Assembly (NCBI GenBank): GCA_041736305.1
Contig: JBGSTX010000290.1
Location: 1 to 14,312, forward strand
DNA from: Oligoflexus sp.
Lineage (GTDB): Bacteria > Bdellovibrionota_B > Oligoflexia > Oligoflexales > Oligoflexaceae
Reading direction: 5' to 3'
DNA: 14,312 nt
Below the pieces are notes generated by a model. It was not told the origin of the DNA and did no database searches. It saw only the letters and a list, made by a program, of their open reading frames with translations. Positions 4,098 through 13,589 of the stretch are shown piece by piece. The position numbers and the translations under genes were made by a program. The number at the start of each line of letters is the position of its first letter. Position 1 is the first letter of the stretch.

Positions 4098-5396
<1,299 letters not shown>

Positions 5397-5424
5397 GTTT
5401 TCCTCCACATACTCTCTTGCAATT

Positions 5425-5452
5425 CGGTCTCCGCTTGCCTGAGCGGGGACCG
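5425..5452. terminator. Hairpin between the convergent eno and HTH genes; possible bidirectional terminator
   Basis: CGGTCTCCGCT-tgcctg-AGCGGGGACCG forms an 11-bp stem with one G-U pair in the 58-bp gap between two convergent stops. U-tracts are weak on both sides. Confidence 0.5.
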
Positions 5453-5454
5453 CT

Positions 5455-5814
5455 TCACGAGAGCGGGGGATGCGCCGCCTCTTCCTCATGATGATGGTCC
5501 ATCCTACCCGGCCTATCCTTTGTCTTGATAAGATCGACGATGTCTCCTATTGTGCAATGGCTTTCGATGCGGTGACGCAAGGGTTTAGACAGATCGATAG
5601 CATAATTGTTCTTGCGTCCTTCCTTGCTCCGATGGATGTAACCATCCTCTTCAAGTTCAGCTACGATCCTTTGCACGGCCCGTTCTGTAATACCGACAGC
5701 AGCTGCCACTTCGCGTAGAACATTATCTGGATTTTGGGCCAATAGAATTAGTACATGAGCGTGGTTGGTCATAAAGGTCCAACCAGATCCGTCAGATTTT
5801 CTTACTTGTGTCAT
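5455..5814 (-). CDS. Winged helix-turn-helix transcriptional regulator (AsnC/MarR-like HTH, 'WTFxTNHAHVL' type)
   Basis: [11 protein letters not shown]...[42 protein letters not shown] at 5814 is preceded by AAAGGATGGGG on the minus strand; the longer ORF-track start (5976) adds sequence with no recognisable features. Confidence 0.88.
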
Positions 5815-6208
5815 GGTGCCCCATCCTTTGGTGCCCCTTTGGAGGGTCTGTGAACATTTGATCACTTCCTCACATGCAAGATAACTTAGTCTCCTTCCTA
5901 TTACGATCCGACAAACATGATTTTTTGTGCAGATAGCTAGAGAGTCACCGGTAGTAATGCCTGCCGTTCTTTCCAAGCGACAGCTACTTTCTTAGAATCT
6001 CCTATCGCATCGGCCGTGGCAAGAATGTTTCACGATCTTCGTAGCACAAAACCCGCGGCCCGGCTTTCAGCGCATCTTTTGTGGGGATAAGCTCGTAGAA
6101 TATTTTGAGGGACCGCGTTCGGCCCAAGCTCAACATCTTTACATTTATACAATTATTATAGGTGGTTATAGATTTTTTTTCACAAATATACAAGAAACTG
6201 CACGAGCC

Positions 6209-6236: not shown

Positions 6237-6283
6237 CTTAGAAGACAGCGATCTTGCTTTTGCAGAGAAGAAAGAAGGCACCT

Positions 6284-6790
6284 ATGGGTGAAAAAACGTT
6301 GGTCAGCTTCGTCAACCTCGTCATCGAGATTGAGGCCAGTGCTAAGGCTGTTCACTATACTGTCAAAGGTGAAATTGACGAAAACTTTCGTCAGAAGGAA
6401 GTTCCGCGCCTTGGCCGGGAGGAGATTCACCTCCACCTGCGTGAAGTCGGCAATTTCAACTCCTGTGGTATCCGGGAATGGATTCATCTCATAAATGACC
6501 TATCGCGGCTCGGTTCTCTTTCCTTTCATGAATGTAGCGTTTCAGCTATCGACCAAATAAACATGGTGCCGAGTTCTCTCGGTGGTGGAACGGTTCATTC
6601 GTTTCACGCTCCTTATTACTGTCAGTGCGGACGTGAGCACACCAAACTCATCCACGTCCTTGAGCATGAATCGCAGTTGAAGGAGCTGCAAGCTCCTCAA
6701 TTCAAATGCCAATGTGGGCAGGTTTTGGAATTTGATGCGTTGGAAGAAAGTTACTTCCAATTCTTGATCGCCTTACCTCGAGCTGGATAG
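6284..6790 (+). CDS. STAS (anti-sigma antagonist)-like domain fused to a C-terminal CxC...CxC zinc-ribbon-like domain
   Basis: KGEID...LHLREVGNFNSCGIREW matches the STAS pattern (G.lD...D.s.v..idSsG). The C-terminus has YYCQCG...FKCQCG...FD..YFQFL. ATG at 6284 follows purine-rich AAGAAGG. Confidence 0.8.
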   Translation: MGEKTLVSFVNLVIEIEASAKAVHYTVKGEIDENFRQKEVPRLGREEIHLHLREVGNFNSCGIREWIHLINDLSRLGSLSFHECSVSAIDQINMVPSSLGGGTVHSFHAPYYCQCGREHTKLIHVLEHESQLKELQAPQFKCQCGQVLEFDALEESYFQFLIALPRAG

Positions 6791-6812: not shown

Positions 6813-9296
6813 ATGGATGCTCTGGTCAAAACGGCAATCGAATCTCTCGTTAAGAAAATCCTACCTTCGCTCAAGCAAGAATTGAGCGCTGCGCTGGCGC
6901 AATCGTCTGAACGTCCTTCTGCTGAGCTGCAATATCTCCTCACTGAAAGCCGAGGGCTACTCGACCTTCTTCAGACTTGGTGCCCCCAATCTACCCAAGC
7001 TTCCCCTAAGAATACGCTTTCACCGGCGGCGGAAGACTTGAGCGATGACGAAGCCATGATGCTCATGGCTGATATGGGCGAGGCTCCCAAAGCTCCTAAG
7101 TCGTCTGGTTCCGACGACGATGAGTTGAGCGAAGACGAAGCCCAAGCTCTACTGATGGAACTGGAGACGCCCGCACCCAAGGCTAAGCTCGCTGCTGCGG
7201 CAGCTCCTGCCAAAGCCAAAGCGGGACCTATGGAAAATGACGAAGCCTCTCGTTTGCTAGCTGAAATGGATGCACCCCTGCCTGCAAAAGCGGGAGCGAT
7301 GGAAGATGACGAAACCTCTCGCTTACTAGCTGAAATGGATGCGCCGCTGCCTGCAAAAGCGAAATCTATGGACGATGATGAAGCGTCTCGACTCCTCGCT
7401 GAAATGGATGACCCCGTGCCGGCTCCTGCCGCCAAAGCCAGCGTAGCTGCTCCCGCAGCTCCTCCGCCGGTGGCCGCTGCCGTATCAGCCGCTGATGAAG
7501 AGGAACTCAAAGAAATTCCAGAGTGGGAAGCCAACGACTTCCAATCTGATCCCTCGATGCTGAACGACTTTATCACCAATGCCGATGAACTCATGCAGAC
7601 TGTGGATGAAGCTATTCTCCGGCTCGAGCAGGAGCCTGGAAACAAGAGCATTATCGAAGAAATTTTCCGTGCAGCCCATACCCTCAAGGGTGGCTCAGGA
7701 ATGTTCGGTTTCAAGGGCATAGAGCGCGTCATGCACCGCATGGAAAACCTCTTCGACCTGATCCGTAAAGACAAACTAGTGCCGAATTCAGATATCATCG
7801 ATACGGTTTTCCAAGGTATCGACCTCCTGAGGACGCTGCTCAAAGCGATTAAAGACGGTAAACCCTCAGGTGTGCTCACCGCTCCCGTGGTCTATGCTCT
7901 CAGTCAGGCGGCTAAAGGCAAGGCTATGGCCAAGGGCAGTGTCAAAGCTCCAGCAGCTGCCTCTGAGGCCGCTCTAGCGCCAACAGCCGTGCGCACCGAA
8001 GCTAAAGACTCGCCAGAGAAGAAAGAGGATCCGGGTAAGAAAAAAGAACAATCGACTATCCGGGTCGACCTCGAGAGACTGGACGTGCTCGTCAATCTAG
8101 TCGGTGAACTTGTCATCGACCGCACGCGTTTTGCGAGTATCGAGGAAGAGCTCCGCACCAATCATCCGCAAATCAAGCTCGGCAGCAGCTTCTCTGAGAC
8201 TGTCCAGCTCTTCGGCCGCCATATGAATGAGATTCAGGACATAATCATGAAAGTGAGGATGGTCCCGATTGGCAACGCTTTCAATAAATTTACCCGCGTC
8301 GTGCGCGATTTAGCTCGCTCCCTCGATAAGAAGATCGATCTCGTCATCAACGGCGAAGCCGCTGAGCTGGATAAGACTTTAGTCGAACAAATCGGGGATC
8401 CGCTGATTCACCTGATTAGAAATTCCTGTGACCACGGTATAGAAATACCTGAAAATCGTGTTAAGCAAGGCAAGGATCCGACGGGCCGCATCTTCCTGTC
8501 TGCTTTCCAAGAAGGTAATCAAATCGTCATCAAAATCGAAGACGACGGCAAGGGGATGGATCCGCAGTGGATTCGGCGCAAGGCCATAGAAAAGGGCCTA
8601 GTGAGTGAAGAAGAGCAGATGTCAAATCGGGATATTCTGAATCTGATCTTTGAGCCCGGATTTTCTACCGCGGAAAAAGTCACCAACATCAGCGGCCGCG
8701 GTGTTGGTATGGACGTTGTAAAAAAGCAGATTCAAAAGCTCAAGGGTGTAATCGAACTCGACAGTGCTGCTGGCAAGGGAACGACGACGACGATCCGCCT
8801 ACCGCTGACTTTGGCGATAGTGCAGAGTCTGCTGGTCCGCTCGCGCGGCGAGACCTTCGCTATACCCCTCGGTACAGTTATCGAGTCGATCCGTATATCA
8901 CCTCGCGATATTCAACGCATCGGCGATGTCGAAATCTATCGCTTGCGTGATACAGTCTTACCCCTCGTGCATTTGGATGAAGCGATGAATCTGGCTTCGC
9001 AGGAGGGCAGCGTGTCTGATCTGCTCAAGCAGCGCCAGGTCTCCCGACGTACACGGATAAAGACCGACCGTCTATTTGTGGTCGTCGTCGGACAGGCCGA
9101 CCGTCCTACTGGTATAGTCGTGGATCAGCTCTTAAATCAGCAAGAAATGGTTATCAAGTCGATGGGTCCTCTGATGAAGAATATTCCATGTATCGCCGGC
9201 GGAGCCGTACTCGGCCACGGAGAAGTTGTTTTAGTTCTCGATATACCTGAACTAGAGGCCGTAAGCCGCGGCCGTGGACGCGGTCAAGCCGCATAG
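6813..9296 (+). CDS. cheA: Chemotaxis histidine kinase CheA with long N-terminal extension and no apparent P2 domain
   Basis: P1 IFRAAHTLKG (His289), P3 STIRVDLERLDVLVNLVGELVI, P4 HLIRNSCDHG / DDGKG / IFEPGFST / SGRGVGMDVV, and P5 LPLTLAI...VDQL..QQEMVIK. SD AGAGGAG upstream. Confidence 0.97.
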   Translation: MDALVKTAIESLVKKILPSLKQELSAALAQSSERPSAELQYLLTESRGLLDLLQTWCPQSTQASPKNTLSPAAEDLSDDEAMMLMADMGEAPKAPKSSGSDDDELSEDEAQALLMELETPAPKAKLAAAAAPAKAKAGPMENDEASRLLAEMDAPLPAKAGAMEDDETSRLLAEMDAPLPAKAKSMDDDEASRLLAEMDDPVPAPAAKASVAAPAAPPPVAAAVSAADEEELKEIPEWEANDFQSDPSMLNDFITNADELMQTVDEAILRLEQEPGNKSIIEEIFRAAHTLKGGSGMFGFKGIERVMHRMENLFDLIRKDKLVPNSDIIDTVFQGIDLLRTLLKAIKDGKPSGVLTAPVVYALSQAAKGKAMAKGSVKAPAAASEAALAPTAVRTEAKDSPEKKEDPGKKKEQSTIRVDLERLDVLVNLVGELVIDRTRFASIEEELRTNHPQIKLGSSFSETVQLFGRHMNEIQDIIMKVRMVPIGNAFNKFTRVVRDLARSLDKKIDLVINGEAAELDKTLVEQIGDPLIHLIRNSCDHGIEIPENRVKQGKDPTGRIFLSAFQEGNQIVIKIEDDGKGMDPQWIRRKAIEKGLVSEEEQMSNRDILNLIFEPGFSTAEKVTNISGRGVGMDVVKKQIQKLKGVIELDSAAGKGTTTTIRLPLTLAIVQSLLVRSRGETFAIPLGTVIESIRISPRDIQRIGDVEIYRLRDTVLPLVHLDEAMNLASQEGSVSDLLKQRQVSRRTRIKTDRLFVVVVGQADRPTGIVVDQLLNQQEMVIKSMGPLMKNIPCIAGGAVLGHGEVVLVLDIPELEAVSRGRGRGQAA
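7218..7424 (+). repeat. Three-copy 69-bp (23-aa) in-frame tandem repeat within cheA
   Basis: The ATG of each unit lies at 7230, 7299 and 7368 (period 69). Units: KAGPMENDEASRLLAEMDAPLPA / KAGAMEDDETSRLLAEMDAPLPA / KAKSMDDDEASRLLAEMDDPVPA. Many differences between units are synonymous. Confidence 0.95.
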
Positions 9297-9306
9297 GAGC
9301 ACCGTG

Positions 9307-9879
9307 ATGTCCTCGCATTTTCCGCAGTCTCAAGATAAGAATCGGCGAGAATATAGCATGTTCTCTATCCGCGGCGACCTCGATGGCGGCAAGGCGAGCC
9401 AAGATTTTGCCAATATTCGGCAGTTTATCGGGCTTTTGATCGGCAAGGAGGAATTTCTGCTGCCGATAGAAGTTACCAACGAAATTATCATGATGAACCA
9501 GCTGACCTTTGTCCCGCGCGCCCCGCGCTTCATCGAAGGTGTCATCAATCTCCGTGGGACTATCATGCCGGCGATCAATCTGCGTCGGATGATGAACATG
9601 CCCAATGAGATGCCTACCTCGCAGAGTCGCATTATCATCGCTCACAGCGAAGAAGTTATGGTCGGCTTGATTGTAGACGGTATCACCTATGTGATTTCTG
9701 TGGGTGCGGAACAGCTGCAGCAGCAGTCGCTACCTAACAAGGGTACGGGCGCCGAGCTGATTTCTTGGATCAGCAAGCGAGGCACCCAGGTCAATGGCGT
9801 ATTCGACATCGCCAAGGTTTTGGCCGAAACTGGTATCAATTTTCAAGCCCAAAATGAGGAGCATGAGGCTGTTGGCTGA
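9307..9879 (+). CDS. cheW: Chemotaxis coupling protein CheW
   Basis: EEFLLPIEVTNEII, TFVPRAPRFIEGVINLRGTIMPAINLR, RIII, VGLIVDGI. SD AGGAG at 9295-9299 overlaps the cheA stop; ATG at 9307 (GTG 9304 also possible). Confidence 0.95.
   Translation: MSSHFPQSQDKNRREYSMFSIRGDLDGGKASQDFANIRQFIGLLIGKEEFLLPIEVTNEIIMMNQLTFVPRAPRFIEGVINLRGTIMPAINLRRMMNMPNEMPTSQSRIIIAHSEEVMVGLIVDGITYVISVGAEQLQQQSLPNKGTGAELISWISKRGTQVNGVFDIAKVLAETGINFQAQNEEHEAVG
9778..9873 (+). repeat. Copy 1 of a diverged 96-bp direct repeat (3' end of cheW)
   Basis: Aligns without gaps to 11774-11869 at 73/96 identities (hand count). Confidence 0.9.
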
Positions 9880-11773: not shown

Positions 11774-11869
11774 AGAAGCACCCACATCTATGGAGTGTTC
11801 GACATTGTCAAAGTTTCGGCAGAAGCTGGCTTCGATTTTCAAGCTCAGAAGGAGCAGCACTAGGCTGTC
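11774..11869 (+). pseudogene. Degenerate copy of the cheW 3' end (copy 2 of the direct repeat), overlapping the 5' end of the PEGA/TPR gene
   Basis: In the cheW frame it reads RSTHIYGVFDIVKVSAEAGFDFQAQKEQH*AV versus CheW RGTQVNGVFDIAKVLAETGINFQAQNEEHEAV. There is an in-frame TAG at 11861 and stops just upstream in this frame. Confidence 0.85.
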
Positions 11870-13589
11870 GCTCCTCTTCCCAGCTTTTCTTCCTTTAACT
11901 GCCTTACTCTTGCTCTTATTGTCCCTAGAAAGTGCAGCTGCTGAAAAGGCGCCTCCTCCACGTAAATCCCCTACGCCATCGGTAGCAGCTCCAGCAGCTC
12001 CCTCGCTTATACTGAGCTCAAGCAGCAAGGACTTGAGCCTTCTGCAAGACGGAATCCTCTCGGCCATCAGTCCTGGCAAAGCCCTCCCCCTTCGCGTTGG
12101 CCTCAACGAACTCATGGTGACGGCACCGGGGTATGGGATTCGCAAGCTCAGGATCTGGTTGAAAGAGGGCGAGCAACGGACCCTAGACGTCGCCCTCCAG
12201 AAAACAGTCAATCCTCTCGACCCAATCTGGGCCTCAGCGGAAAAGCCGATACCAAGCAAGCAGCTCAGCAAGAAACTGAGCGTCTGCGCGTGGTTTCGCA
12301 GTAAAAGCAAAAAAGCTGATATCTGCCCGCGACAGACTTGGCTGGAGGACATCCTCTTTGTCGAACCCGGCCTCTTCCCCTTTGACGAGATGCAAAGTCT
12401 GGCTGACAGCAAAGAGCTGACCCAATACAGGAGCCTCGTCAATCAGGTCTTCGACCCCAACCCTGAAGTCACGGCAAAAATCGAGGACTTTTACACTCAA
12501 CGCGGCCAGCTGAAAGCGGTCAAGCAGCTAACCACTATGCGCAGCTTCTTTCAGGGCGACTGCCCACGGGTCCACGCTCTCTATGTAGAAGCTCTGCAGG
12601 TCATGGAAGATCCTTCTGCCATCGCGTTGTTCAAAGGCTTCTGTGCTGAGTTCAGGAATAAAGACAGCGGCCTTGAAAATCTCATCAAATCGAGCAAAGC
12701 GCCGGCCCCCTATCTCTACTACCACCTAGGCCGCATGCTCCTTCCGAAATCCGCGAGTAAAGCCCTGGAAATTGCCAACACCTGCCTGAAGTCTAATCGC
12801 TTCGACCTCGGTTGCCAGGAGCTCGCCTTGATGGCCTCCGCTATTGAAAACCCCACAGGTCCAGATCTTAAGGTGCAGCGTTTTACTATTGAAGATGGTG
12901 CTTTCCGTACCCTGCTCACGCTCGAGACGACGGTACCTAAGGCTCAGTATGAGCAGGCTTTCTTCTCGGTTATTCCGCTTCTCAACACCTATCCCCAGAG
13001 CTTGGAGCTCTACCTCTACCTAGCGTGGATAAACGCGGCTGAAAAGCTGTCTGGAGGTTCAGGCTACATTGATCGAAAGTTTGACGTCAGCGCGATTCTG
13101 GGCGGACCAACTCTTGAGAAGATAATCGAAGACCTCGAAAAATTCGGCTTTTCATCTCTCTTAGCACCGATCTACCGTCTAAAAATTCGGCGCGATCCAA
13201 GTGATCCCAACCTCTGGATCCGCCTTATCCGGGCTTACTCCCAAGCGGGTAACTGTGAGGAAGTCCTGAGCAGCTTTAAGGATGGGGCGCAGGTTCTCCC
13301 TCGCTTCAATGCTTCTCTCCTACAGACCCAGGCCGCCTGCCTAGTCGAGCTGAAGCGTTTCGAGGAGGCAGCAGAAAGCTACCAGAAGATCTTGGAACTC
13401 AAACCCGGTGCATGGTCAAGTCCCTACAACCTAGCCACAGTCTACGAAAGGCTCAATCGCAGTCCTGAAGCACTGCTGCTTTACAAGAAGGCTCTCGAGC
13501 TGCAGCCCACGCCCGAAATCAAAGATGATATTCAGTTTAGGCTCCTAGATCTCGAGAAAAATCTGGGTACCGAAGCAGATACACCATAG
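11790..13589 (+). CDS. Secreted protein with PEGA-like domain and C-terminal TPR repeats
   Basis: Basic N-region, then hydrophobic LLFPAFLPLTALLLLLLSL and an AAA cleavage site. PEGA-like VTAPGY..RKLRIWLKEGEQRTLDVAL. TPR-type motifs EEAAESYQKILELKP, YNLATVYERL, EALLLYKKALELQP. Start uncertain: ATG 11790 or TTG 11805 (GGAG at 11792-95). Confidence 0.85.
   Translation: MECSTLSKFRQKLASIFKLRRSSTRLSLLFPAFLPLTALLLLLLSLESAAAEKAPPPRKSPTPSVAAPAAPSLILSSSSKDLSLLQDGILSAISPGKALPLRVGLNELMVTAPGYGIRKLRIWLKEGEQRTLDVALQKTVNPLDPIWASAEKPIPSKQLSKKLSVCAWFRSKSKKADICPRQTWLEDILFVEPGLFPFDEMQSLADSKELTQYRSLVNQVFDPNPEVTAKIEDFYTQRGQLKAVKQLTTMRSFFQGDCPRVHALYVEALQVMEDPSAIALFKGFCAEFRNKDSGLENLIKSSKAPAPYLYYHLGRMLLPKSASKALEIANTCLKSNRFDLGCQELALMASAIENPTGPDLKVQRFTIEDGAFRTLLTLETTVPKAQYEQAFFSVIPLLNTYPQSLELYLYLAWINAAEKLSGGSGYIDRKFDVSAILGGPTLEKIIEDLEKFGFSSLLAPIYRLKIRRDPSDPNLWIRLIRAYSQAGNCEEVLSSFKDGAQVLPRFNASLLQTQAACLVELKRFEEAAESYQKILELKPGAWSSPYNLATVYERLNRSPEALLLYKKALELQPTPEIKDDIQFRLLDLEKNLGTEADTP

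Follow-up and report, generated by a model that had tools for sequence, protein, structure and literature searches.

The C-terminal peptide of CheZ and the N-terminal peptide of FliM (FliM-N) bind the alpha4-beta5-alpha5 face of CheY. Repeats within CheA itself are described for gammaproteobacteria: passages of one report (10.1101/2025.10.27.684771) present three 19-residue repeats of P. putida CheA (DEITDAEFESLLDQLHGKG; core EFExLLD; positions 196-295), and the statement of the original prediction that such repeats exist is correct. The EFExLLD repeats overlap the LID, which is sufficient for ParP binding in V. parahaemolyticus, and AlphaFold models put ParP on the repeats (passages of the same report and of eLife PMC5706961). 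Judged from these passages, they are the closest described analogue of the array reported here, and they are linked to ParP and not to CheY. The P2 domain of CheA is dispensable and missing from many CheAs (passages of PMC10542144), and the STAS-only protein CheS of Sinorhizobium meliloti, encoded in a che cluster, binds CheA and alters CheA-CheY binding (passages of PMC12654446).

The window analyzed here, a stretch of 14,312 bp from the genome of an Oligoflexus sp. (GCA_041736305.1, contig JBGSTX010000290.1), encodes a CheA with five copies of a short acidic motif in front of P1, and this array probably represents a lineage-restricted, multivalent docking arm. The arm bears on how P2-less CheAs find response regulators, and on array tethering without a ParP adaptor, outside the enteric model. 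It also offers a compact test case, with a 13-residue motif conserved across an order and natural variants that have zero to six copies; in one relative two Hpt domains flank the array, and sister clades have lost it. No description of the motif arm was found in the literature covered, including passages of the CheA-architecture survey (PMC10542144).

Gene set and domain order of CheA

The CheA gene is preceded by a STAS-fold gene and followed by a CheW gene, as follows.

6284..6790, + strand: STAS-fold gene, 168 aa, with a C-terminal CxC...CxC extension, upstream of CheA (AlphaFold2 and Foldseek)
6813..9296, + strand: CheA histidine kinase, 827 aa (translation, Pfam, conserved N-terminus)
6819..6980, + strand: N-terminal helical hairpin of CheA, aa 3-29 and 37-56 (AlphaFold2 helices 3-29 and 37-56, block pLDDT 81-97)
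7536..7853, + strand: P1 (Hpt) four-helix bundle, aa 242-347 (Pfam Hpt 249-347; AlphaFold2 helices 242-347, pLDDT 86-95)
8049..9254, + strand: P3 (aa 413-481), P4 (aa 529-666) and P5 (aa 672-814) (Pfam; genome search with PF02895)
9274..9879, + strand: CheW (Pfam CheW, 2.4e-27), downstream of CheA in 14 of 14 loci

Translation, Pfam and AlphaFold2 together give the domain order hairpin, motif arm, P1, linker, P3, P4 and P5, and the N-terminus, MDALVKTAIESL, is kept among orthologues. The Pfam matches comprise Hpt (residues 249-347, 5.7e-17; P1 had been placed from about residue 249 beforehand), H-kinase_dim (413-481, 6.5e-18), HATPase_c (529-666, 7.5e-18) and CheW (672-814, 3.3e-21); hence an Hpt domain with conserved His, a dimerisation domain, a HATPase_c domain and a CheW-like P5 are all present, as in a CheA histidine kinase. 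The phospho-accepting residue of P1 is His289, within FRAAHTLKG. No P2/CheY-binding domain was matched by Pfam in this CheA (P0001) at E<=0.01, and the P2/CheY-binding models gave no match at E<=10 in P0002, P0006 and P0025. The CheW ORF opens with GTG at 9274; the relatives mostly align from about residues 15-29 onwards, and the true start may therefore be the ATG at 9358.

The motif array and its spread in Oligoflexales

The part of CheA that is N-terminal to P1 contains five copies of the pattern [LM]x[DEN][DE]E[AT]xx[LM][LM]x[DE][LM], at residues 76, 105, 140, 163 and 186.

7038..7076, + strand: motif 1, LSDDEAMMLMADM, aa 76-88 (predicted helix 78-88; 39.3 bits on the motif profile)
7125..7163, + strand: motif 2, LSEDEAQALLMEL, aa 105-117 (predicted helix 107-118; 27.0 bits)
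7230..7268, + strand: motif 3, MENDEASRLLAEM, aa 140-152 (predicted helix 143-153; 35.2 bits)
7299..7337, + strand: motif 4, MEDDETSRLLAEM, aa 163-175 (predicted helix 166-176; 35.9 bits)
7368..7406, + strand: motif 5, MDDDEASRLLAEM, aa 186-198 (predicted helix 190-198; 42.4 bits)
7218..7420, + strand: tandem DNA repeat with a period of 69 bp, containing motifs 3-5 (Tandem Repeats Finder: 2.9 copies, 82% matches, score 264)

The original prediction had given the motif starts as nt 7038, 7125, 7230, 7299 and 7368, which the translation reproduces exactly; the span it drew, 7038..7424, is right at the start and runs 18 nt past the end of the last motif (7406). It had also called the motifs helical and the linkers rich in Ala, Pro and Lys. 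Both descriptions hold: AlphaFold2 predicts five short helices (block pLDDT ~56-74), separated by A/P/K-rich segments with pLDDT <50, and the linkers (aa 57-236 without the motifs, 110 aa) consist of 32% Ala, 19% Pro and 11% Lys. The helices are of moderate confidence and have no fixed position (pTM 0.38). A SHOCT domain (PF09851) was rejected as an identity of the arm, with a protein-atlas feature score of 0.89 (below the 0.9 line) and no Pfam SHOCT match at E<=10 for the arm and three homologues.

The strict pattern matched five times in the 248-aa N-terminal part, and composition-preserving shuffles of this part gave one match in 3 of 20,000 cases and two matches in none, so that the five copies are beyond chance. 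The pattern was absent from all other six-frame ORFs of at least 40 aa in the genome (62,915 ORFs), and a motif profile built from 143 instances retrieved from the genome's ORFs the CheA ORF as its sole match (E 4.8e-25; runner-up E 0.48). Judged from their sequence, the five motifs are copies of one lineage-specific short linear motif with the consensus [LM]-S-D-D-E-A-x-[AR]-L-[LM]-A-E-M-D, and with a net charge of -4 or -5 per 14-mer the motif is read as a capped, strongly acidic amphipathic helix with A6, L9, L10 and M13 on its hydrophobic face. Motif 5 aligns to the last motif that is retained in close orthologues (M[GA]DDEA[SA]RLLAEM).

The CheA orthologues of Oligoflexales share the consensus LSDDEAxxLLAEMD in zero to six copies. 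The original prediction had named absence of the motif from orthologous CheAs as a result that would refute it; instead, two to six copies were found in 35 of the 36 database CheAs (one protein with none, seven with two, eight with three, five with four, five with five and ten with six copies). Across the 143 instances the columns D3 (127), D4 (127), E5 (140), A6 (140), L9 (132), A11 (132), E12 (129) and M13 (139) are conserved and positions 7 and 8 vary; every instance has Ala (140 of 143) or Thr at position 6. The motif sequence is thus nearly constant whereas the copy number shifts quickly, partly via tandem duplication, and the arm always lies directly N-terminal to a P1. Two variants stand out: the CheA of genome G001 (locus L075) has four copies between two Hpt domains and lacks both the hairpin and the upstream STAS gene, and the clade of G027 (locus L083) keeps CheA, hairpin, STAS gene, CheW and the CheY orthologue and lacks the motifs as well as the long P1-P3 insert.

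In a wider set of 80 loci, collected by means of the N-terminal alignment, a match to the entire arm occurred in only 15, all of the Oligoflexales type, and 14 of the 15 have at least one motif. The remaining 65 CheAs belong to other phyla, in a set that contained no gammaproteobacterial CheAs, and they have no motif before P1 and never two or more copies of the generic pattern in the 400 aa past the His. When the arm (aa 72-203) was searched with phmmer in a set of 1.84 billion representatives, only seven matches reached E<=1e-3; P0025, P0014 and P0159 are CheAs or pieces of CheA, so that no non-CheA domain context occurred among these three examined matches, and the other four are sequences of 183-248 aa. 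Against PDB sequences, the same type of search found two engineered tandem-epitope chains (E 1.2), which were dismissed as chance matches.

Candidate partners of the arm

With the motifs on a flexible arm before P1, and in a CheA for which Pfam predicts no P2, a role as a multivalent docking arm suggests itself, and since the motif stays constant while its copy number varies, each copy would be a binding site and the arm a multivalent tether. Such an arm might keep multiple copies of a single partner, or a partner that is oligomeric, close to P1 and the receptor array. In the logic of the kinase it would take the place of P2 as a tethered docking element beside P1, but P2 is folded and sits between P1 and P3 whereas the arm consists of short helices before P1. 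This part of the original prediction, which had proposed a multivalent CheY-docking arm, therefore stands, and its choice of CheY is so far not supported, in view of the low score of FliM-N on the motif profile (below) and the tie of EFExLLD to ParP.

As a single best guess, and a tentative one, the partner may be a receiver protein, the best candidate being the CheY of E. coli type whose gene follows flhG-fliA on contig C276. A CheY-docking arm could do the work of the absent P2 or retain CheY-P, and it would constitute a new class of CheY-docking element in CheA. The motif and the FliM-N of the same genome (LSQSEVDALL) have [LM]-S-x-x-E-h-x-x-L-L in common, and capped acidic amphipathic helices with L-S-x-x-E-h-x-x-L-L are also the likeness to CheZ-C. 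FliM-N, however, is the single-copy extreme N-terminus of a C-ring protein whereas the CheA motifs are internal (aa 76-198) and repeated, and the host of FliM-N and CheZ-C is a switch protein or phosphatase and here a kinase. On the motif profile, the own-genome FliM-N 13-mer scored -4.7 bits, a value equalled or exceeded by 1,143 of 1,690,393 windows, whereas the five motifs reached 27-42 bits; the profile search of the genome did not retrieve FliM. The motif also lacks LSQxEIDALL with an acidic residue after the first hydrophobic position, its position 6 is Ala or Thr where the own-genome FliM-N has Val, and its position 7 is variable where FliM-N has Asp. Of the FliM-N likeness claimed originally, what is left on sequence grounds is a generic capped-amphipathic-helix pattern only, and the profile match failed.

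The distribution of CheY was also considered. Among the genomes whose CheA-orthologue loci were fetched within the order, all have a strong CheY orthologue except G043, and G041, G022 and G053 have FliM and lack both this CheA and a strong CheY orthologue. In our own register to the E. coli protein, the CheY residues E96, I99 and E100 would lie on helix alpha4. In a grouping assigned by hand, their conservation is at least 98% across the 45 genomes that keep the motif-bearing CheA, and most of the 19 genomes that lack it show changes there; the signal is weak, since about three related clades stand behind it and the whole module has diverged there. Against CheY, the clade of G027 keeps the CheY orthologue and CheA and is yet motif-less. 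A predicted complex between the C276 CheY and CheA aa 134-205 (alignment A2), modelled without controls, had ipSAE values of 0.00 and 0.00 and counts neither for nor against CheY. In favor of CheY, Pfam predicts neither CheZ nor CheC in the genome (92.7% complete).

Docking of the motifs to a CheW-like (SH3-like) domain, i.e. that of the operon CheW, CheA-P5, CheV or a ParP-like protein, which would anchor CheA to the array or to a pole in the manner of the LID, appears rather unlikely; if it applied, the LID type of array tether would reach beyond gammaproteobacteria. In the passages named above, such a role together with ParP is proposed for the EFExLLD repeats in the CheA of Vibrio and Pseudomonas, and the two arrays share short acidic helical motifs repeated two to three times or more in a flexible CheA region, and the pattern [IL]-[ST]-D-x-E-h-x-x-L-L-x-x-[LM]. 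The P. putida repeat is slightly closer to the motif than FliM-N, at -0.2 bits on the motif profile, a score that is not significant, with 282 windows equal or better. The gene context of cheY, flhG-fliA-cheY-PilZ-DUF2802, is typical of polar-flagellate chemotaxis clusters, and in relatives from four families the STAS-CheA-CheW module is followed by a gene for a ParA-like ATPase, which has an orthologue in G000 (C87:5778-6656). The core, however, is DDEAxxLLAEM here and EFExLLD in the LID, and the arm lies before P1 (in L075, between the two Hpt domains) whereas the LID lies after P1/P2 and before P3. The LID would also be expected only together with ParC and ParP, whereas the 13 CheW-domain matches of the genome included no ParP-like protein (a CheW-like domain ending a longer protein). 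At E<=1e-40, at least 10 genomes whose CheA bears the motifs lack the ParA-like orthologue (e.g. G040, G054, G024, G025, G042, G043, G052, G083-G085), and it is present in motif-less clades (G027, G028, G032, G033, G090-G092, G094-G096), and with this phyletic dissociation in both directions it was rejected as an obligate partner of the motifs. The same dissociation and the weak FliM-N likeness make a MinD/ParA-type ATPase (FlhG or ParC-like) an improbable partner of the motifs, although the ParA-like gene adjoins the module in many relatives and flhG adjoins fliA-cheY; such docking would link the array to flagellar-pole placement with no need for a ParP adaptor. The MinD-like ATPase FlhG reportedly requires the EIDAL motif of FliM for binding, and this motif is reported to suffice (passages of 10.1101/2022.04.21.489128 and PMC12826062), and likeness to FliM thus does not single out CheY.

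The upstream STAS-fold protein as the ligand of the motifs, in resemblance to the CheS-CheA pair, in which CheS improves CheY binding, is very improbable. CheS binds CheA and changes CheA-CheY binding (passages of PMC12654446), and the STAS gene lies immediately upstream of CheA in 13 of 14 loci; L083, however, has the STAS gene and a hairpin CheA without motifs, its STAS protein scores like those of its motif-bearing sisters (~1e-81 as against 1e-83 to 1e-86), and L075 has motifs without the STAS gene. The family moreover occurs in 121 of the 131 genomes, frequently in the absence of this CheA, and the STAS protein itself reads as acidic and is thus unlikely to bind a peptide of charge -5. 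That the arm has no external partner at all, and is a spacer or an intramolecular regulator whose acidic helices occupy P1 or P4 as a pseudo-substrate, has little probability either. The moderate-confidence helices without fixed position (pTM 0.38) and the motif-less CheAs within the family are in its favor, but a spacer has no need for 12 of 14 positions conserved across an order, and an intramolecular regulator none for two to six copies.

The N-terminal hairpin and the STAS-fold gene

The hairpin had no Pfam match at E<=10. In 21 sequences, M1, D2 and W56 are invariant and A3, L4, A8, L12, K14, L17, P18, L20, E45, L49 and L50 nearly so. An origin of the hairpin from a former first Hpt domain was discarded, given an hhalign probability of 0.2%.

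The upstream STAS gene tracks the hairpin, not the motifs. For a CheS-like role of its product the one line of evidence is gene adjacency (13 of 14 loci); a small STAS-fold gene adjoining cheA, in a genome without Pfam CheZ or CheC, is what the locus shares with the CheS-CheA system, and the Oligoflexus protein differs in its extra C-terminal CxC...CxC part and in matching no Pfam STAS model. The STAS paralogues in G000 (C331, C196 and C98) have no hairpin-bearing neighbour and hence give no independent support for a STAS-hairpin pair. A wider proposal, which we regard as rather doubtful, combines both parts of the N-terminus: the hairpin would seat a CheS-like STAS/zinc-ribbon protein and the expandable array of up to six acidic helices would each capture CheY or CheY-P, as a new two-part N-terminal CheA module of Oligoflexales, where this CheA is Pfam-negative for P2 and the genome for CheZ and CheC, and the kinase would be a multivalent CheY concentrator or phosphate-sink platform with a capacity set by the copy number of the 23-residue repeat. 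If the partner were identified, a widespread STAS-fold family that is as yet unannotated would gain a function as well.

The STAS-fold protein itself had no Pfam match, including to Pfam STAS, and none of its 178 homologues, mostly of 164-183 aa, has a Pfam domain; its ORF is also open from a TTG at 6254. The fold is supported by AlphaFold2 (pLDDT 93.7) and by Foldseek against PDB, which matched anti-sigma-factor antagonists over about 95-100 aligned columns (4hyl_B, E 5.2e-4, probability 1.00; SpoIIAA, 1til_B; RsbV, 6m36_D) and also TM1442.

The N-terminal motif array of CheA

The 827-aa CheA carries five short acidic motifs on an arm in front of its P1 domain; a P2/CheY-binding domain was not matched by Pfam in this protein. 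The features of the gene and of its upstream neighbor are as follows.

6284-6790 (+), STAS gene, 168 aa, directly upstream of CheA
6813-9296 (+), CheA, 827 aa (ORF translation)
6819-6980 (+), helical hairpin, CheA aa 3-56 (AlphaFold2)
7038 (+), motif 1, aa 76 (translation)
7125 (+), motif 2, aa 105 (translation)
7230 (+), motif 3, aa 140 (translation)
7299 (+), motif 4, aa 163 (translation)
7368 (+), motif 5, aa 186 (translation)
CheA aa 249-347, Hpt (P1) (Pfam)
CheA aa 413-481, dimerisation domain (Pfam)
CheA aa 529-666, HATPase_c (Pfam)
CheA aa 672-814, CheW-like P5 (Pfam)

The original prediction, of five FliM-N/CheZ-C-like motifs forming a candidate CheY-docking arm, had placed all five at exactly these nucleotides. 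The motifs are acidic, with net charges of -4 or -5 each, and are joined by linkers in which Ala makes up 32%, Pro 19% and Lys 11% of the residues. A strict pattern matched five times within the 248-residue N-terminal part of CheA, whereas composition-preserving shuffles of this part yielded one match in 3 of 20,000 cases and two in none of 20,000; no match was found in the other six-frame ORFs of the same genome (5.0 Mb; 62,915 ORFs in total). A profile built from 143 motif instances recovered the CheA ORF as sole find (E 4.8e-25; next best, 0.48). The repetition is thus beyond chance expectation. A 69-bp tandem DNA repeat (7218-7420; 2.9 copies, 82% matches) spans motifs 3-5. A 302-aa antisense ORF (6971-7879, -) overlaps the arm; it is Ser/Ala-rich, mirroring the Ala/Glu/Asp-rich coding strand, and was taken to be spurious.

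When CheA residues 1-250 were used as a query, 35 other CheAs were retrieved; the handful with a named source are assigned to Oligoflexus, Pseudobdellovibrionaceae, 'Proteobacteria' or 'Pseudomonadota'. Including the query, 35 of 36 CheAs contain two to six copies before the P1 histidine (two copies in 7 proteins, three in 8, four in 5, five in 5, and six in 10); in the single zero-copy protein (P0024), degenerate copies are visible by eye. The consensus of the 143 instances is [LM]-S-D-D-E-A-x-[AR]-L-[LM]-A-E-M-D, with E5 and A6 in 140 each, M13 in 139, and L9 and A11 in 132 each, and with positions 7 and 8 free. Judged from this consensus, S-x-x-E would serve as the N-capping box of a helix, with A6, L9, L10 and M13 lined up on a single hydrophobic face.

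At E<=1e-5, 47 of the phylum's 131 genomes have a match to the N-terminal 250 residues, as do 19 of the 21 genomes in the window's own family; these figures are too low, since this query misses the more diverged arms. In a phmmer search of 1.84 billion representatives, the arm matched seven proteins at E<=1e-3; three of the seven are CheAs or CheA pieces. Among 80 loci of species-representative genomes, whole-arm matches were limited to 15 Oligoflexales-type loci, 14 of which have one motif or more; the motif is lacking in all 65 CheAs of other phyla. The array is real, under strong selection and variable in copy number, and it is restricted to Oligoflexales-type CheAs.

In an AlphaFold2 model of CheA residues 1-351 (21 aligned sequences), a helical hairpin (helices 3-29 and 37-56; block pLDDT 81-97) and a four-helix P1 (aa 242-347) are predicted with confidence. 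Five short helices (78-88, 107-118, 143-153, 166-176 and 190-198; block pLDDT about 56-74) coincide with the motifs and are separated by segments of pLDDT <50. With a pTM of 0.38, no fixed arrangement among hairpin, motif helices and P1 is predicted. The predicted anatomy is typical of short linear motifs in a disordered arm.

The STAS gene, the hairpin and variants of the module

The 168-aa upstream protein has no Pfam match and 178 homologues. Its model (pLDDT 93.7) resembles STAS-fold anti-sigma-factor antagonists (4hyl_B, E 5.2e-4; SpoIIAA; RsbV) over about 95-100 aligned columns, followed by a C-terminal part with CxC...CxC; the family shares an invariant NFNSxGIREW block and is multi-copy, with members in 121 of the phylum's 131 genomes (four copies in the window's genome). 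The order STAS-CheA-CheW is kept in 13 of 14 relatives' loci, and no MCP, CheY, CheB or CheR was found in the Pfam/BLAST-scanned parts of these 14 loci.

The hairpin, in which M1, D2 and W56 are invariant, is present in every CheA-like gene seen directly downstream of a STAS gene (13 loci, and loci L083, L084, L088 and L090). In L083 (genome G027), a 638-aa CheA with the hairpin and without motifs comes after the STAS gene, and CheW and a ParA-like ATPase come next; the STAS score in the motif-less G027-G033 is as high as in motif-bearing sisters. In L088 (genome G091), a 431-aa hairpin protein (4684-5979, -) directly follows the STAS gene and precedes a ParA-like ATPase gene. It has a region like the CheA C-terminal part (query aa 641-814, 27% identity) and no FRAAH/HTLKG His motif, and seems to be a derivative of the STAS-CheA module without the kinase; this arrangement is found in G091 and its sister genomes G090-G096. 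The STAS orthologue stands without an adjoining CheA in 11 of 15 further loci. The CheA of L075 (8108-10768, -; genome G001, another order) consists of an Hpt, four MSDDDAMAMLAEMD copies, a second Hpt and P3-P5; among the motif-bearing CheAs, only this one has no STAS gene next to it, an M28 peptidase gene lying upstream instead, and the hairpin is missing. Across these variants, the hairpin accompanies the STAS gene, and the motifs form a module of their own, always directly before a P1. The hairpin is a candidate STAS docking site; an Hpt remnant was rejected (hhalign probability 0.2%).

Of the other genes in the window, a divergent MarR/winged-helix regulator gene (5455-5976, -) lies upstream of the STAS gene, with homologues only in L078 and L079 among the relatives' loci fetched. 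The window also encodes a 599-aa TPR protein (11790-13589, +) that has a hydrophobic segment at its N-terminus; homologues at 37-45% identity are present in 4 of 14 such loci (L066, L067, L078 and L079).

Candidate docking partners

Conservation and architecture argue that the motif array very probably acts in docking; an arm working without an external partner is improbable. The partner may be a receiver protein, chiefly CheY, though we propose this tentatively. The genome encodes one FliM and 129 receiver-domain matches, and no Pfam match for CheZ or CheC was found in it (92.7% complete). Three further CheAs are on contigs C320, C147 and C352, where MCP, CheW and CheB matches are also found. 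An E. coli-like CheY of 137 aa is encoded in another cluster.

G000:C276:11107-14448 (L015; window's own genome), flhG, fliA, cheY, PilZ-domain gene and DUF2802-like gene, in this order

The predicted FliM-N likeness holds as far as the pattern L-S-x-x-E-h-x-x-L-L, common to the motif and the FliM N-terminus of this genome (MSQVLSQSEVDALLSAV). Scored with a profile made from 82 distinct motif 13-mers, the window's five copies reach 27-42 bits and this FliM-N reaches -4.7 bits, with 1,143 of 1,690,393 genome windows matching or exceeding FliM-N; hence, the likeness is generic. At position 6 the motif has Ala or Thr and FliM has Val, and position 7 is variable in the motif and Asp in FliM-N. Within the order, genomes of fetched loci with a CheA orthologue all have a strong CheY orthologue, except G043; G041, G022 and G053 have FliM and neither orthologue. 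In a CheY alignment of 64 genomes, grouped by hand, E96, I99 and E100, which we take to lie on helix alpha4 by register to E. coli CheY, are >=98% conserved in the 45 genomes keeping a motif-bearing CheA and changed in most of the 19 lacking one. Co-occurrence and these positions weakly link the module CheA to the C276 CheY; the position signal is a hint and no test, because the changed genomes fall into about three related clades, all with divergence throughout the module. Nor does this signal distinguish the motifs from P1. N30 and H83, like E96, I99 and E100, are conserved in the motif-keeping group and changed in three lacking clades.

A CheW-like or array component, bound in the manner of the LID (the CheA region binding ParP), is an unlikely partner, for which there is precedent. 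According to 10.1101/2025.10.27.684771, P. putida CheA has three DEITDAEFESLLDQLHGKG repeats (core EFExLLD, positions 196-295) that occur only in ParC/ParP organisms, overlap the LID sufficient for V. parahaemolyticus ParP binding, and make contact with ParP in AlphaFold models; the CheW-like domain of ParP binds the CheA-LID (eLife, PMC5706961). The P. putida repeat is nearer to the motif than FliM-N is, but still not significant (-0.2 bits; 282 windows equally good), and there is no ParP-like protein among the 13 CheW-domain matches of the genome. A MinD/ParA-type ATPase is more doubtful. Binding of FliM to the MinD-like ATPase FlhG reportedly requires its EIDAL motif, which is also reported to suffice (10.1101/2022.04.21.489128; PMC12826062). 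A ParA-like ATPase gene follows the STAS-CheA-CheW module in relatives of four families, and lies away from it in the window's own family.

G000:C87:5778-6656 (-), ParA/MinD-like ATPase orthologue
L083:8981-9757, ParA/MinD-like ATPase
L090:1751-2587, ParA/MinD-like ATPase
L084:9929-10768, ParA/MinD-like ATPase
L077:5184-6164, ParA/MinD-like ATPase
L088:2609-3511, ParA/MinD-like ATPase

These proteins are 59-65% identical between families and presumably resemble the ParC encoded in chemotaxis clusters of Vibrio and Pseudomonas. At E<=1e-40, at least ten motif-bearing genomes lack the orthologue and motif-less clades have it; it was rejected as an obligate partner because its occurrence dissociates from the motifs. 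The STAS protein is less probable still as the partner of the motifs. CheS of S. meliloti, a STAS protein, binds CheA and alters CheY binding (PMC12654446); it is a good model for the STAS gene and hairpin, less so for the motifs, and the STAS-gene protein may, by analogy, be a CheS-like CheA partner. The remaining probability falls to some other partner.

No published description of the arm was found in the main texts of the literature searched. Membership in the FliM-N, LID, P2 or SHOCT classes was rejected, as at least one tested defining feature failed in each; the arm would be a variant of accessory docking repeats in CheA.
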